From: Candidatus Omnitrophota bacterium
GTDB taxonomy: Bacteria > Omnitrophota > Gorgyraeia > Gygaellales > Profunditerraquicolaceae
Length of the DNA stretch: 60,685 nt
Assembly (NCBI GenBank): GCA_041653055.1
Contig: JBAZGD010000004.1
Location: 1 to 60,685 of the forward strand
Direction: 5' to 3'
Part shown: positions 4,261 to 60,685 of the stretch, one piece after another
How positions within the stretch are numbered: the first letter of the stretch is position 1
How the letters are laid out: every line of letters starts with the position of its first letter
Translations under genes and position numbers: made by a program
The notes under the pieces: generated by a model
Database searches by the model: none
Seen by the model: only the letters and a program-made list of their open reading frames with translations
What the model was told of the DNA's origin: nothing

Positions 4261-5404
4261 TAAAAAGTTATTCTGGATATTTGCCTTAAGCAGCTGCGTA
4301 TATTTTACTCAGGGTATAGAGGCGCTTCCTTCCCAGGGTTTATTCTACTACCTTAAAGAAATACTTCATTTTTCCCCGCAGAAGATAATGGTAATCTCCA
4401 GCATACCTGTTTTGGCATGGCTGATTAAGCCGTTGATCGGGTATGTAATTGATAATTTCTTTACCAAGAAAAAGTGGATCTTTATATCTTTAGGCTTGGA
4501 TATATTGCTGGTTTTAGCCTTAGGGTTGATAGAGATGCCGCTTATTCTGCTGATTATTATAATTGCGCTAAATTCTGCCGATTCTGCTTTCCGCGACGTA
4601 GCAGTGGATGGGGTGATGTGCGTTGAAGGGAAGAAATATAATATTACCGGAAAGATCCAGAGCGTACAGTGGATTGCTTTATCTCTGGCCGGGATTATAA
4701 CGGGAGTAGGCGGAGGCTACCTTGCCCAGATTTGGGGTTACCGGGGGGCCTTTCTCTGCCTGGTGCCTATATATATTATTGTAACATTACCGGCGTATTT
4801 TTACCGCGAGACTATCGTAAGAGGCGCTAAAGAAAGAGGGCATTTAGGCCAGGACCTGAAAGCGCTTTTTGGCGATAAATATCTTTTGCTGGTGGCGCTA
4901 TTTATATTCCTCTATAAATATTCGCCGTCTTTTGGCACCCCGCTATTTTTTATCCAGAGGGATATTTTCAACTGGGGCAAGGTCTGGATAGGGTTTTTAA
5001 GCACCTTGGGCACGGTCTGCGGGATCATCGGCTCAATTTTTTATTACCGGTACAGCCAGAAGATAGATATAAAAAAGTGGCTCTACGCCTCGGTTTTCCT
5101 GGGGGCAATCACTACCATGAGCTACCTTTATTATACTCCGGTTACTGCGGTGATTTATGATGTCGTTTACAGTTTTATCGGGATGTTTATATTTATTATG
5201 GTGATGGATTTTATGGCGCGTAGTTCTATCAAAGGGCTCGAGGCCACTTCTTTTGCCCTTTTATGCAGCGTCAGTAACCTGGCGCTTGTCTTAAGTAACC
5301 TTTCCGGCGCCTATCTTTTGCCTAAGATTGGCCTGAGCTGGCTTATTATTATTTCCAGCCTTACCAGCTTTCTCTGTTTGCCGTTGATTCGCAAGATAAA
5401 ATAG
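4226..5404 (+). CDS. MFS transporter, probably BT1 folate/biopterin-like (start uncertain: GTG 4226 or GTG 4247)
   Basis: About 12 hydrophobic segments; W-x-IKPL-x-G-x-x-x-D and DVAVDG motifs resemble the BT1 family. The subfamily call is inference. Confidence 0.7.
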   Translation: MSQNLSQVPLNNKKLFWIFALSSCVYFTQGIEALPSQGLFYYLKEILHFSPQKIMVISSIPVLAWLIKPLIGYVIDNFFTKKKWIFISLGLDILLVLALGLIEMPLILLIIIIALNSADSAFRDVAVDGVMCVEGKKYNITGKIQSVQWIALSLAGIITGVGGGYLAQIWGYRGAFLCLVPIYIIVTLPAYFYRETIVRGAKERGHLGQDLKALFGDKYLLLVALFIFLYKYSPSFGTPLFFIQRDIFNWGKVWIGFLSTLGTVCGIIGSIFYYRYSQKIDIKKWLYASVFLGAITTMSYLYYTPVTAVIYDVVYSFIGMFIFIMVMDFMARSSIKGLEATSFALLCSVSNLALVLSNLSGAYLLPKIGLSWLIIISSLTSFLCLPLIRKIK

Positions 5405-5440
5405 GGGACAGTCCCAAATAAAGGGGACGGTCCTATTTTT
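5404..5440. repeat. Family A left arm of the RAYT element, preceded by the palindrome GGGGACAGTCCC
   Basis: AAATAAAGGGGACGGTCCTATTTTT at 5416-5440 is identical to 7493-7517 and inverted relative to 6172-6192. Confidence 0.9.
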
Positions 5441-5492
5441 TTTGTTAGATTTCTTTTCTCCCTGCGTCTATTAAGGTAGAAGGGAGGGAATT

Positions 5493-6179
5493 ATGCCTAG
5501 GACAAGGAGAATAATACCTATTGAGGAAGCAGCTTTGCATATAGTTTGTAGAGGGAATAACCGGCAGAGGATTTTTTATGATGACGGAGATAAATTAAAG
5601 TATTACGCTTTATTATGTGAACTGAAACATGAAAACGGGGTAGATATATTAAATTACTGCATAATGGATAACCATGTCCATTCTATATCATACCTGAGAT
5701 CGGAAAATAATTTATCCAAATTCATGAAGCAAGTTAACTTGAGTTATTTTCACTACTATAAAAAGAAATACGGATATTGCGGGCACCTTTGGCAGAATAG
5801 ATTCCGAAGTAATATTATTGAATATGACCGGTATTTGCTGCAATGCGGAAAATATATTGAACTTAATCCTGTAAGGGCGGGCATGGTAAACTCTCCGGGC
5901 GAATATCTATTTTCTAGCTATAATTATTACTCAAACGGAAAGCCGGATAGCCTTGTGACAACTAGCCCGGTTTATCGGGGACTATCTGACTCTCCTAGCG
6001 CAAGGCAGAAGAATTATATTAATTTTGTTATCAATGGCAGTATAATAAACTCAACTGTGATTGCGAAAAATCTGTATATAGGCAGCCCAGAGTTTATTGC
6101 TATGTATCAGGAGCGCTTTAAGATTAAGAATCCACGCATAGTTAAGGGAAGGCCGCCAAAGGAGAGCCAGGAAAAATAG
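5493..6179 (+). CDS. REP-associated tyrosine transposase (RAYT; IS200/IS605-related Y1 HUH superfamily)
   Basis: HIVCRGNNRQRIF, HUH motif MDNHVH, LWQNRF, catalytic-Tyr region YIELNPVRAG. The stop codon TAG lies inside the right arm. Confidence 0.9.
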   Translation: MPRTRRIIPIEEAALHIVCRGNNRQRIFYDDGDKLKYYALLCELKHENGVDILNYCIMDNHVHSISYLRSENNLSKFMKQVNLSYFHYYKKKYGYCGHLWQNRFRSNIIEYDRYLLQCGKYIELNPVRAGMVNSPGEYLFSSYNYYSNGKPDSLVTTSPVYRGLSDSPSARQKNYINFVINGSIINSTVIAKNLYIGSPEFIAMYQERFKIKNPRIVKGRPPKESQEK

Positions 6180-6192
6180 GACCGTCCCCTTT
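6172..6192. repeat. Family A right arm of the RAYT element
   Basis: AAAAATAGGACCGTCCCCTTT is the reverse complement of 5420-5440. Confidence 0.92.
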
Positions 6193-6206
6193 GTTTTCAA
6201 TAATAC

Positions 6207-6235
6207 TTGAAGATCAGGGATTAAAGTAGTATAAT
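6207..6235 (+). promoter_or_regulatory. Sigma70-type promoter for glgC
   Basis: TTGAAG-N17-TATAAT, followed by SD GGAG before ATG 6260. Confidence 0.65.
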
Positions 6236-6259
6236 CCTTTTCAAAGGAGATTTGCTGGA

Positions 6260-7486
6260 ATGATGCAGAAGGTTTTAACATTTATCATGGCCGGAGGCAA
6301 AGGCGAGAGGCTGCTTCCCCTAACCAAGGATAGGGCTAAGCCGGCGGTTCCCTTTGGCGGTATTTACAGGATCGTAGATTTTACCCTGAGTAACTGCATT
6401 AATTCGGGTTTGCGCAGGATATATTTATTAACCCAGTATAAATCCGCTTCGCTGCATAGGCATATCCGTTTGGGGTGGAATATTCTTCCTTCAGAGCTAG
6501 CGCAATTCATAGAATTATTACCGGCTCAGCAGAGAGTTAGCGATTCATGGTATCTGGGTACCGCCGATGCCATATACCAGAATCTTTATACCCTGGATAT
6601 GGATAAGCCGGATGAAGTCCTGATTCTAGCCGGAGATCATATCTATAAGATGAATTATTACGATATGATTGATTTTCACCGTGCTAATGATGCCGATCTT
6701 ACTGTGGGCGTGGTGGAGATAGACAAGTCAAGCTCTCCGCATCTTGGCGTTGTGGAAGTGAATGATTCCAACAAGGTAAGCGGTTTTCAGGAGAAACCTA
6801 AGAATCCAAGGACAATTCCCGGAAATGATAATAAAATATACGCCTCTATGGGCATTTATGTTTTTAAGGGCAAGGTAATTGAGGAAGAGCTGCATGAGGA
6901 TGTCAAGCGAATCGGCTCCTCGCATGATTTCGGCAGGGATATAATCCCTTATATGCTTAAGAAAGGGAGAAAGATAGTAGCCTATAATTTTGTGGACCAG
7001 AATAAGCATGAGGCGCTTTACTGGAGGGATATCGGGACAATTGATGCTTATTTTGAGGCGAATATGGATTTGATCCAGGTCAATCCCACATTTAACCTTT
7101 ATGATAAGGAGTGGCCGATCAGGACTTATCAGGAACAGTTCCCTCCGGTAAAGACCGTGCATTCAGGTGATGAGATTGCCGGAAGGGTAGGGCTGGTCCT
7201 GGATTCAATAGTCTCCAGCGCCTGCGTTGTTTCCGGAGGCAAGGTGCAGCGTTCGGTCCTTTCTCCGAATGTAAGGGTAAACAGTTTTTCTGAGGTATAT
7301 GACTCCATACTTATGGAAGGGGTTAATGTAGGCAGGTATGCCAAGGTTAAACGCGCTATCATCGATAAGGATGTGAATATTCCCCAGGGAATGGTTATCG
7401 GCTATGACTTGGCCGAGGATAAGAAGAAGTTTTTTGTTACCGAATCCGGGATTGTGGTTGTAGCAAAAGGAACGGAGATAAAATAA
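6260..7486 (+). CDS. glgC: Glucose-1-phosphate adenylyltransferase (ADP-glucose pyrophosphorylase)
   Basis: MAGGKGERLLPLT...RAKPAVPFGG, GTADAIYQN, LAGDHIY, FQEKP, YWRDIGTIDAY, C-terminal beta-helix. Confidence 0.97.
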   Translation: MMQKVLTFIMAGGKGERLLPLTKDRAKPAVPFGGIYRIVDFTLSNCINSGLRRIYLLTQYKSASLHRHIRLGWNILPSELAQFIELLPAQQRVSDSWYLGTADAIYQNLYTLDMDKPDEVLILAGDHIYKMNYYDMIDFHRANDADLTVGVVEIDKSSSPHLGVVEVNDSNKVSGFQEKPKNPRTIPGNDNKIYASMGIYVFKGKVIEEELHEDVKRIGSSHDFGRDIIPYMLKKGRKIVAYNFVDQNKHEALYWRDIGTIDAYFEANMDLIQVNPTFNLYDKEWPIRTYQEQFPPVKTVHSGDEIAGRVGLVLDSIVSSACVVSGGKVQRSVLSPNVRVNSFSEVYDSILMEGVNVGRYAKVKRAIIDKDVNIPQGMVIGYDLAEDKKKFFVTESGIVVVAKGTEIK

Positions 7487-7492
7487 AGTGGG

Positions 7493-7563
7493 AAATAAAG
7501 GGGACGGTCCTATTTTTTCTTAAAGCGGAAATAGTTTTAAAAATAGGACCGTCCCCTTTATTT
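7493..7563. repeat. Family A doublet (REPIN/MITE-like): 25-bp perfect inverted repeat with 21-bp spacer
   Basis: 7493-7517 AAATAAAGGGGACGGTCCTATTTTT and 7539-7563 are reverse complements; same arms as the RAYT element. Confidence 0.93.
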
Positions 7564-8058: not shown

Positions 8059-8082
8059 AAAAATGGGCGCTGTCCCTATTTA
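8059..8082. repeat. Family B solo arm in the predicted 5' UTR of the acyl-CoA dehydrogenase gene
   Basis: AAAAATGGGCGCTGTCCCTATTTA, identical to 11284-11307. Confidence 0.9.
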
Positions 8083-11233: not shown

Positions 11234-11307
11234 TTAAATAGGGACAGCGCCCATAATTAAATAGGGACAGCGCCCATTTTTTCAAAAATGGGCGCTGTCC
11301 CTATTTA
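11231..11307. repeat. Family B: 23-bp tandem duplication followed by an inverted arm (doublet)
   Basis: TAATTAAATAGGGACAGCGCCCA at 11231-11253 and 11254-11276. 11258-11281 is the exact reverse complement of 11284-11307. Confidence 0.93.
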
Positions 11308-11412: not shown

Positions 11413-11452
11413 ATTACCAGTTGATAGTTGTTTTTATTGAAAAGTGTTCGGA

Positions 11453-11477
11453 GAGTGTCCCTTTGGGGAGCGTCCCC
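11453..11477. repeat. Family C solo arm in the predicted 5' UTR of the HTH gene
   Basis: GAGTGTCCCTTTGGGGAGCGTCCCC is the exact reverse complement of 700-724. Confidence 0.9.
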
Positions 11478-16118: not shown

Positions 16119-16130
16119 GCAAGCGAGGTA

Positions 16131-16147
16131 TAAGGGGGACGGTTCTT
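16131..16147. repeat. Degenerate family A arm
   Basis: TAAGGGGGACGGTTCTT versus TAAAGGGGACGGTCCTA. Confidence 0.5.
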
Positions 16148-16267
16148 CGGGTTCTTACCCGCTTACCCGCAATATTTTATAAAAACCTCAAATTATCATT
16201 AAATTTAGGTTAGATTTAGGGCAGGGCTGCGTCTATTGTTTTAGAGGGGAAGGGGGTGAGTATTTAT

Positions 16268-60505: not shown

Positions 60506-60570
60506 TAAATAGGGACAGCGACTATTTTTATTAGTATTTAGTTTAGCCAAAAATGGCCGCTCTCCCTATT
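60506..60570. repeat. Degenerate family B doublet just upstream of the GH161-like gene
   Basis: 60506-60529 and 60549-60570 each differ by 2 nt from the arms at 11258-11281 and 11284-11305. Confidence 0.8.
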
Positions 60571-60602
60571 CATAATGTAAAATATCTTTCGCACTTTTGA
60601 TA

Positions 60603-60631
60603 TTGCCTTAAGCATAAAAAAGGCATATCCT
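60603..60631 (+). promoter_or_regulatory. Possible + strand promoter for a gene beyond the window
   Basis: TTGCCT-N17-TATCCT; the downstream gene is not visible. Confidence 0.35.
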
Positions 60632-60685
60632 CTTAGGTTGATAACGCAAATTATTAACCTAACCGGCCCTTACGGGCCAGCAAAA

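Follow-up and report, generated by a model that had tools for sequence, protein, structure and literature searches.

A RAYT gene between inverted-repeat arms in an Omnitrophota genome: a probable TIRtron/REPtron-type locus with apparently mobile arm copies

What is a transposase gene doing between perfect inverted repeats when the same repeats, a little further along the same contig, enclose almost nothing? The question is raised by a 60,685-nucleotide stretch of a Candidatus Omnitrophota genome (GenBank assembly GCA_041653055.1, contig JBAZGD010000004.1, positions 1 to 60,685), hereafter the window, in which a gene for a REP-associated tyrosine transposase (RAYT; REP, repetitive extragenic palindrome) lies among genes for an MFS/BT1 transporter, glgC and a GNAT acetyltransferase. 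A sequence-only reading had proposed a family of elements with terminal inverted repeats, including miniature inverted-repeat transposable elements (MITEs), driven by an HUH enzyme. The analysis described here favours, at a probability of roughly 0.78, a locus of the REPtron/TIRtron type, that is, a resident Group 1 RAYT together with its cognate repeat. The source assembly (956 kb in 41 contigs, 87% complete, for a full genome of ~1.1 Mb) has a coding share of ~94% by a rough count of open reading frames (ORFs); it is designated G000, with the window as its contig C4, while G001–G041 are comparison genomes and L numbers are loci or contigs. By the source organisms of its nearest proteins, the genome falls within Candidatus Omnitrophota. 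The closest relative, G004, has a DNA identity of ~92%.

The 21-nt arm sequence AAAGGGGACGGTCCTATTTTT occurs exactly four times in the window, at 5420-5440 (+), 6172-6192 (-), 7497-7517 (+) and 7539-7559 (-), and none of 100 shuffled windows contained any match to it. The first pair brackets the ORF at 5493-6179 (+), which encodes 228 amino acids (aa) and whose stop codon TAG (6177-6179) falls within the right arm. The second pair brackets 21 bp (7518-7538) and lies in the gap that separates glgC from the GNAT gene, forming an inverted doublet at 7493-7563. Perfect arms around the gene, a stop codon supplied by the right arm and the same arms around just 21 bp had all been pointed out from the sequence alone, and all three observations hold. 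The left arms of the two pairs are identical over 26 bp (5416-5441 and 7493-7518), and the arm, here called family A, is ~26 bp long with a core of GGGGACGGTCCTATTTT. Immediately 3' of the MFS stop codon (TAG 5402-5404), a degenerate inverted arm and a GGGGACAGTCCC palindrome (5399-5416) form a tail-to-tail doublet with the left arm of the cassette (5416-5441, +, with its perfect core at 5420-5440); this 47-nt stretch folds at -9.8 kcal/mol (z -4.0). Between the left arm and the gene lies a conserved leader (5444-5492, +), comprising GTTAGATTT at 5444-5452, CGTCTATT at 5465-5472 and a run of pyrimidines able to pair with the Shine-Dalgarno sequence GGGAGGG at 5480-5486. At the other end of the cassette, homology with G004 restarts exactly at the outer part of the right arm (6172-6192, -).

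The encoded protein is classified as a RAYT-type HUH/Y1 enzyme of Group 1, also known as TnpA-Y1 subclass 2.1 or 'TIRYT', with its predicted HUH and tyrosine residues intact, in agreement with the earlier assignment to the RAYTs. It matches Pfam Y1_Tnp (PF01797, E 7e-16), and its score of 67.6 bits against the NCBIfam model for REP-associated tyrosine transposases (NF047646), built mainly from proteobacterial RAYTs, does not reach the 80-bit cutoff. H61 and H63 (in NHVH, 60-63), W100, Q101 and the predicted catalytic Y121 (in YIELNP) are invariant in 29 aligned homologues. An AlphaFold model (pLDDT 77, core >85) has as its best Foldseek match 4ER8_A, the E. coli TnpA-REP with a REP hairpin (E 1.6e-7, TM 0.70 normalised by target length), followed by the transposases of the insertion sequences (IS) IS608, ISDra2 and IS200. 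The subclass 2.1 row in Table 1 of Quentin et al. 2018 (PMC6006769) gives NHVH or NH[YF]H, W[EQ] and YIELNP with a median length of 238 aa, and the NHVH, WQ and YIELNP motifs and 228 aa found here agree with it; the same authors treat this subclass, the RAYT Group 1 of Bertels and the TIRYTs of Di Nocera as one and the same. The C-terminal extension of the subclass is described as resembling a helix-turn-helix (HTH) domain (Bac_DnaA_C, HTH_23 or HTH_28). The extension in the window's protein is ~85 aa long, helical and modelled at low confidence, and gave no Pfam HTH match at E <= 0.01. It ends in RGRPPK, and in the homologues an AT-hook-like RGRP(P/K)K C-terminus (here residues 218-228, window 6145-6176) is near-invariant, the DNA that encodes it abutting the right arm. 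This RGRP tail could contact the A/T run of the arm. By tblastn the source genome has one intact RAYT gene and one pseudogene, a decayed copy at a contig end (C5:51455-51780, L057) with stop codons and without the HUH-bearing N-terminal part, preceded by the variant arm GAGACGGTTCTTC, a sigma-70-like promoter and a leader.

Across the source genome, the top over-represented 14-mers all come from three repeat families, A with 17 copies, B (GGGGACGCTCCCCAAAGGGACACTCC) with 23 and C (AAATAGGGACAGCGCCCATTTT) with 17, which share only the GGGAC core. Family A copies are perfect over 21 nt in 11 of 17 cases and over the 17-nt core in 16, and 14 lie within 30 nt of a stop codon. Ten of them make up five head-to-head doublets, with spacers of 2, 4, 19, 21 and 22 bp; no mutual similarity was found among the spacers of these five doublets. 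Since a single arm does not fold on its own (DNA dG -1.2 kcal/mol, z -0.1) while doublets fold strongly (-26.8 and -27.1 kcal/mol, z -9.5 and -12.9), the arms resemble terminal inverted repeats rather than palindromic REPs.

The same cassette is present at seven further Omnitrophota loci, each with a left arm (GGGGACGGTTCTATTT or a variant), a leader ordered as GTTAGATTT-N12-xCGTCTATTA, AGGAGG and ATG, a ~225-aa gene ending in RGRPxK, and a right arm. The stop codon lies within the right arm at six of the seven, and at L078 the right arm starts 2 nt past the stop. Within the order, RAYT paralogues that are more distantly related (~160 and 196 aa) likewise have GGGAC-type arms on both sides, each a type of its own; arms of family B bracket the 196-aa RAYT in G010 and G001, and on contig L079 two paralogues differ from each other in arm type. 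Among the comparative arguments for an action of the predicted enzymes on the arms, it is this match between enzyme types and arm types that weighs most.

The leader, too, recurs with the enzymes. Its two-box motif (GTTAGATTT-N12-CGTCTATT, with fixed spacing) precedes nearly all RAYT paralogues in the order and is also found in metagenome-assembled genomes (MAGs) of the Aminicenantes type. There are ten occurrences in the source genome (window 5444-5472 and 16210-16237; C1:72597, C3:12996, C3:16599, C13:468/1359/1939, C17:18946 and C5:51525), and the motif also precedes genes for SpoVG, a ComEA-like protein, a zf-HC2 anti-sigma-like protein, ORF6N and Bro-N proteins and a 535-aa secreted protein. 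Because it has ten copies with fixed spacing, also before unrelated genes, it is probably a promoter type of the lineage, read by an alternative sigma factor; its second box, CGTCTATT, presumably recalls the -10 elements of extracytoplasmic function (ECF) type. In the clade of ~225-aa RAYTs the segment that separates the two boxes is the complement of the Shine-Dalgarno sequence, with compensating changes in the pairing (for example UUUCUCCUU/AAGGAGAAA and ACCAC/GUGGU), and for most members the leader hairpin is more stable than after shuffling of the spacer (z -3 to -5). The leader in the window shows no gain over shuffles (z -0.3) because its all-pyrimidine spacer pairs in nearly any order. 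Hiding of the ribosome-binding site in read-through transcripts occurs in IS10 and IS200. For the IS200 leader, it is cited in the work on TIRtrons (Di Nocera 2013, PMC3733652). The leader module is found before other genes as well, in that C13:1-2000 (L056) of the source genome holds three tandem units of a family A arm, a RAYT-type leader and a non-transposase gene (ORF6N, Bro-N-like and truncated ORF6N), and the left-end module of the RAYT therefore appears to have been reused before phage-type antirepressor-like genes.

The short arm copies appear to be mobile, because relatives show empty or differently filled sites. The glgC/GNAT spacer, which holds the family A doublet in the source genome, is empty (5-9 nt, or with the genes overlapping) in G010, G007, G002 and the metagenomic locus L069, while three relatives have other repeat types there, G004 a GGGACTGTCCC palindrome, G005 a different pair of the GGGACACCC type and G001 B-like units in tandem. 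A ~60-bp insertion (694-761) with a family B single copy (700-725, +) is missing at the orthologous site in G004, and the site of the family B doublet at 1837-1947 has a single A arm in G004 instead. The family C single copy at 8060-8081 (-) is present in G000 and G004 and cleanly missing in G010 and G005, a nested pattern as expected from one insertion in the G000/G004 ancestor. Among the family A sites on other contigs, the doublet on C25 is orthologous in G004 (C11), with identical arms and a diverged spacer; the C3 site has only a variant single arm there and the C30 site is empty, while the remaining sites are not comparable in G004, the C9 site being masked by an N run and C13:4778 and C35:2811 lacking a counterpart. 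Overall, the source genome has 17 arm copies and G004 three, and no RAYT was detected in G004. Four comparisons of filled with empty sites revealed no target-site duplication, a feature that had been proposed as a check, and the empty sites resemble only the A/T-rich outer end of the arm (AAATAAA or TATTTA). The expectation that short, non-autonomous copies move is thus supported by the glgC/GNAT spacer and by the other sites that are empty or differently filled in G004.

The gene unit itself looks different, in that it shows no sign of recent autonomous transposition and appears to be mostly vertically inherited. A metagenomic contig carries a 66%-identical RAYT in the same PGK-TIM-MFS-RAYT-(MarC)-glgC-GNAT-ACAD context, with flanking proteins 81-89% identical to those of the window. 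The sequence-only reading had suggested looking for empty sites between the MFS gene and glgC; what was found there was relics or arms only in four relatives, and the RAYT in the same slot in a related species. G010 has an arm-bounded relic of ~135 bp without the gene directly after MFS, a true internal-deletion derivative; G001 and G007 retain an arm and ~60 nt of left-end sequence upstream of glgC; and G004 retains an arm at the exact position of the right arm of G000. The contigs of three relatives break at this junction. A MarC-family gene stands between the RAYT slot and glgC in L069 (3736-4335), with none there in the source genome (window 6193-6259); in G002 (L055) such a gene lies between MFS and glgC, and in G001 a distance of 160 kb separates the MFS gene from glgC. 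Because MarC presence varies and the two genes are split in G001, the slot can be described as a rearrangement-prone junction.

No genome examined contains near-identical gene units. Some have 9-13 RAYT hits (G030 and G023), all of them divergent paralogues with at most 71% DNA identity; IS-like behaviour in these two genomes was rejected on an all-against-all blastn, which found no near-identical units. Homologues of ~60-65% identity occur at unrelated loci in other Omnitrophota genomes, always with both arms and the same boundaries. Since over long times the cassette is found at different loci with both arms, it has probably been relocated or transferred as a whole on rare occasions. The family A doublets do not qualify as deletion derivatives of this unit, for their spacers are unrelated in sequence and length and unrelated to the inner ends of the unit. 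The derivation of a MITE from an autonomous transposon with terminal inverted repeats was rejected on the same spacers and on the lack of target duplication; one true deletion relic exists, in G010. What remains of the proposed HUH-driven family is thus the apparent mobility of the arm copies and a likely rare relocation of the whole cassette, but not recent transposition of the unit.

Upstream of recA (16128-16262, +) stands the isolated left end of a related RAYT unit, consisting of the arm GGGGGACGGTTCTTC, ~60 nt and the leader motif. Along its length this relic can be aligned with the left ends of two pseudogenes, the one on C5 and a RAYT pseudogene in G010. A common regulator site shared by RAYT and recA was considered for the upstream motif and rejected, the recA copy being this relic; recA has its own promoter, TTGACA-N17-TATAAT, downstream of it.

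The arm extends well beyond the Omnitrophota. A search of one genome per prokaryotic species (596 Gb, ~1 match expected by chance) returned 42 stretches with the exact 20-mer AAAGGGGACGGTCCTATTTT, most of them in Candidatus Aminicenantes/Acidobacteriota MAGs and in MAGs labelled 'uncultured Eubacteriales', others in a Desulfaltia MAG and, with one occurrence, a Planctomycetia MAG. Many of these stretches are inverted doublets. Two cross-phylum loci carry a RAYT 45-51% identical to that of the window, in both cases with the stop codon in the identical right arm; the left arm and a related leader are present as well at L141, the only one of the two with its upstream region on the contig. In the complete Aminicenantes chromosome CP070750.1 (4.35 Mb) there are 106 copies of the 17-nt core AGGGGACGGTYCTATTT, 53 forward and 53 reverse and mostly in doublets, and one arm pair ~780 bp apart brackets a RAYT 55% identical to the window's. 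The arm is far more conserved than the enzyme, with enzymes only 45-55% identical. It is tempting, at somewhat less than even odds, to regard the arm-leader-RAYT-arm cassette as one ancient cross-phylum partnership in which the 17-20-nt arm AAAGGGGACGGTYCTATTTT has been kept identical. If so, the whole arm, and not a short tag, would be read sequence-specifically, perhaps through the RGRP AT-hook on the A/T tail, and it would be the first defined DNA substrate for the largest RAYT group (Group 1/subclass 2.1).

The window also contains repeats of the other two families. Further doublets had been noted at 1834-1950, 11258-11307 and 60506-60570 as having the geometry of the family A pair; the geometry is indeed shared, with GGGAC outermost, but they do not belong to the same family, being members of families B and C. 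The first is a family B doublet of 111 bp (1837-1947, arms 1837-1862 and 1922-1947) with a 59-bp spacer. The second belongs to family C and has an extra direct copy (11236-11257) beside an inverted doublet (arms 11259-11280 and 11285-11306), together 11236-11306, and the third is a degenerate family C doublet (60507-60571, from the pair 60507-60528 and 60550-60571). The genome repeat search placed another family B single copy at 11452-11477 (-). The final ~65 bases of the window (60620-60685) are repeated at the ends of contigs C3 and C31 of the source genome, and constitute another repeat that breaks the assembly.

No element of the source genome is more MITE-like than the 111-bp family B doublet. 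This doublet occurs also at C13:2991-3101 and C13:5088-5198, its 59-bp spacer is conserved, and matches are found in G010 as well. The C13 doublets encode a mini-ORF, MRKIGNFQSRVSP(G/R)GASPR, which one of them joins to the beginning of rfbB as a fusion, while in the second it overlaps the start codon of the next gene. Units of the GGGAC type stand in frame within coding genes at C13:2021-3043 (L056), C13:3062-3910, C13:5159-6376 and C7:22082-29325. RfbB contains GLSPKGTVP and GLSPKGSVP, two inserts of 9 aa each, at loops that in relatives hold different inserts or lack one; rfbD and tyrS take their final residues and stop codon from family B units, and one giant ORF contains three such units.

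How might a resident Group 1 RAYT act on its repeat? The enzyme would recognise the arm on single-stranded DNA and would cut and rejoin it by the HUH/tyrosine mechanism, as in E. coli TnpA-REP and IS608 TnpA, a mechanism suggested by family membership, arm-enzyme pairing and arm turnover. The likely substrate would be the long hairpin of a doublet, or of the two arms flanking the gene, formed during replication, and new A/T-rich sites would in this way receive copies of short arm-bearing segments, with no duplication of the target. Doublets with a T-run behind them would probably persist since they may also act as bidirectional terminators. The cassette would be mostly vertical, relocating only rarely. 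Expression is probably low, as the leader hairpin would hide the ribosome-binding site in transcripts that read in from the upstream gene; the promoter-like motif GTTAGATTT-N12-CGTCTATT may give the element its own transcription start, and such transcripts would escape the hiding. Several points weigh against this account. Because single arms have neither a hairpin nor GTAG, the E. coli recognition model is not directly transferable, and activity of the enzyme on the arm is so far a prediction. A cognate RAYT for families B and C was not found by tblastn in the 87%-complete assembly, which does not include the tRNA-adjacent slot where G010 and G001 have their B-type RAYT. G006, only 57% complete, has 18 arm copies and no RAYT match. 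Since many sites hold different families in different species, some of the turnover could reflect conversion or replacement of copies at old sites and not new insertion. Finally, the terminator role is suggested by shape only; the doublets were not called by a consensus terminator scanner, their stems and loops being beyond its limits.

It is unlikely that the arm-bounded gene unit is an active autonomous transposon whose MITE-like deletion derivatives, the doublets, are mobilised whole in trans. The constancy of both arms and of the boundaries in unrelated contexts would fit such an element, as would the exact break of G000/G004 homology at the arm, the deletion relic in G010, the decayed C5 copy together with the solo left end near recA, the genomes with 9-13 paralogues, and the family B doublet with its conserved spacer. 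Against these stand the same slot occupied in a related species, the lack of two near-identical units in any examined genome and of a visible target-site duplication, and the finding in published work that REPtrons do not move as units (PMC6006769). The matching arm type on both sides of every RAYT paralogue, a signature of enzyme-substrate pairing together with the two arm types of the L079 paralogues, tells against another explanation, which is very improbable: that the host uses arms and doublets mainly for regulation (for instance as bidirectional terminators or as sites bound by proteins) and that they are spread and homogenised by recombination or gene conversion, with the RAYT a domesticated nuclease that has some other job. 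The adjacency of arm copies to stop codons, the strong hairpins followed by T-rich tails, the identical arms and diverged spacer of the orthologous C25/C11 doublet, the extreme conservation of the arm across phyla and the presence of different families at the same sites in different species all speak for host elements of this kind. However, arm copy number peaks where a matching intact RAYT is present, and clean presence/absence differences of ~25-75 bp are hard to obtain by conversion alone.

The reading as a resident RAYT with its cognate repeat has clear precedents. RAYTs had been thought, in the sequence-only reading, not to be described as units bounded by inverted ends, yet RAYT genes flanked by their own repeats have been called REPtrons (Ton-Hoang 2012, PMC3333891), and RAYT-like genes with long terminal inverted repeats, a GGGGWSAS motif and in some cases an overlap with the 3' end of the gene have been called TIRtrons or TIRYTs (Di Nocera 2013, PMC3733652). 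TIRtron repeats occur in moderate numbers as singles, dimers or groups (PMC3733652). The likeness to TIRtrons is close: a Y1/HUH gene of ~230 aa with NHVH, WQ and YIELNP and a low gene copy number, terminal inverted repeats with a GGGG[AT][CG]A[CG]-like core, some of which run into the gene's 3' end, and a repeat found elsewhere as singles, dimers and groups, here 17 arm copies with five doublets. Compared with GGGGWSAS, arm A reads GGGGACGG and fits at 7/8 positions, the GGGGACAG palindrome (5404-5411) fits fully, and the GGGACAC and GGGACAG cores of families B and C fit over the last seven positions. The locus differs from TIRtrons in its host, an Omnitrophota genome of ~1.1 Mb, in the presence of three or four GGGAC-core families in one genome, in an RGRP AT-hook-like tail in place of a detected HTH in the C-terminal extension, and in the same 17-20-nt arm across phyla. 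No repeats were found beside subclass 2.1 genes by Quentin et al. 2018 (PMC6006769), whereas the association with repeats is plain here. For Group 1 RAYTs, flanking 16-mers have been reported at ~12 occurrences per replicon (Bertels 2017, PMC5581495).

REP doublets as mobile units are known as REPINs (Bertels and Rainey 2011, PMC3116915). With the REPtrons and REPINs of Enterobacteria and Pseudomonas (also Nunvar 2010; structure 4ER8) the locus shares a single-copy RAYT flanked by presumed substrate repeats, inverted doublets that form long hairpins, copies that are intergenic and near stop codons, and a largely vertical gene amid a turnover of repeat positions. In contrast to classical REPs, the arms are not palindromic and lack a 5' GTAG; unlike a REPIN, the family A doublet is not a conserved replicating unit, since its spacers are unrelated, and only the 111-bp family B doublet is one. 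The RAYT is of another group, below the NF047646 cutoff, and copies number in the tens, not hundreds. Membership in the CGTC-tagged REP superfamily was considered and rejected, because CGTC, though present in the arms, is not the terminal tag of a palindrome there. Elements of the IS200/IS605 type (IS608, ISDra2, IS200) have the HUH/Y1 fold and no target duplication, and IS200 has a leader hairpin over the ribosome site, as here. The locus differs from them in having Y-x3-NP and not Y-x3-Q, in lacking identical multiple copies and tnpB, and in having inverted-repeat ends instead of two unlike subterminal hairpins on one strand. The GGGAC-type units (mainly family B, GGGACAGTCCC type) that lie in frame in genes such as rfbB, adding short surface peptides, recall the Rickettsia palindromic elements, although this likeness concerns the sister families and not arm A, and a candidate transposase is known here.

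The locus thus fits the TIRtron/REPtron description and represents a new phylum for such elements, not a new kind. Its lineage had been thought to be undescribed in this respect, and a literature search indeed found no paper joining RAYTs or REPINs with Omnitrophota; in the literature searched, neither enzymology nor an assigned cognate repeat was found for RAYT Group 1/subclass 2.1. What was unexpected is the conservation of the whole cassette across Omnitrophota and the recurrence of the exact 20-nt arm in Aminicenantes and other phyla. A streamlined genome of ~1.1 Mb tolerates at least three mobile repeat families, including units in frame in housekeeping proteins. Group 1 is the most widespread group of RAYTs, and this locus and its relatives offer for it a short, conserved candidate substrate, together with natural controls in the form of paralogues with their own arm types, genomes with and without the enzyme, and empty and filled sites.

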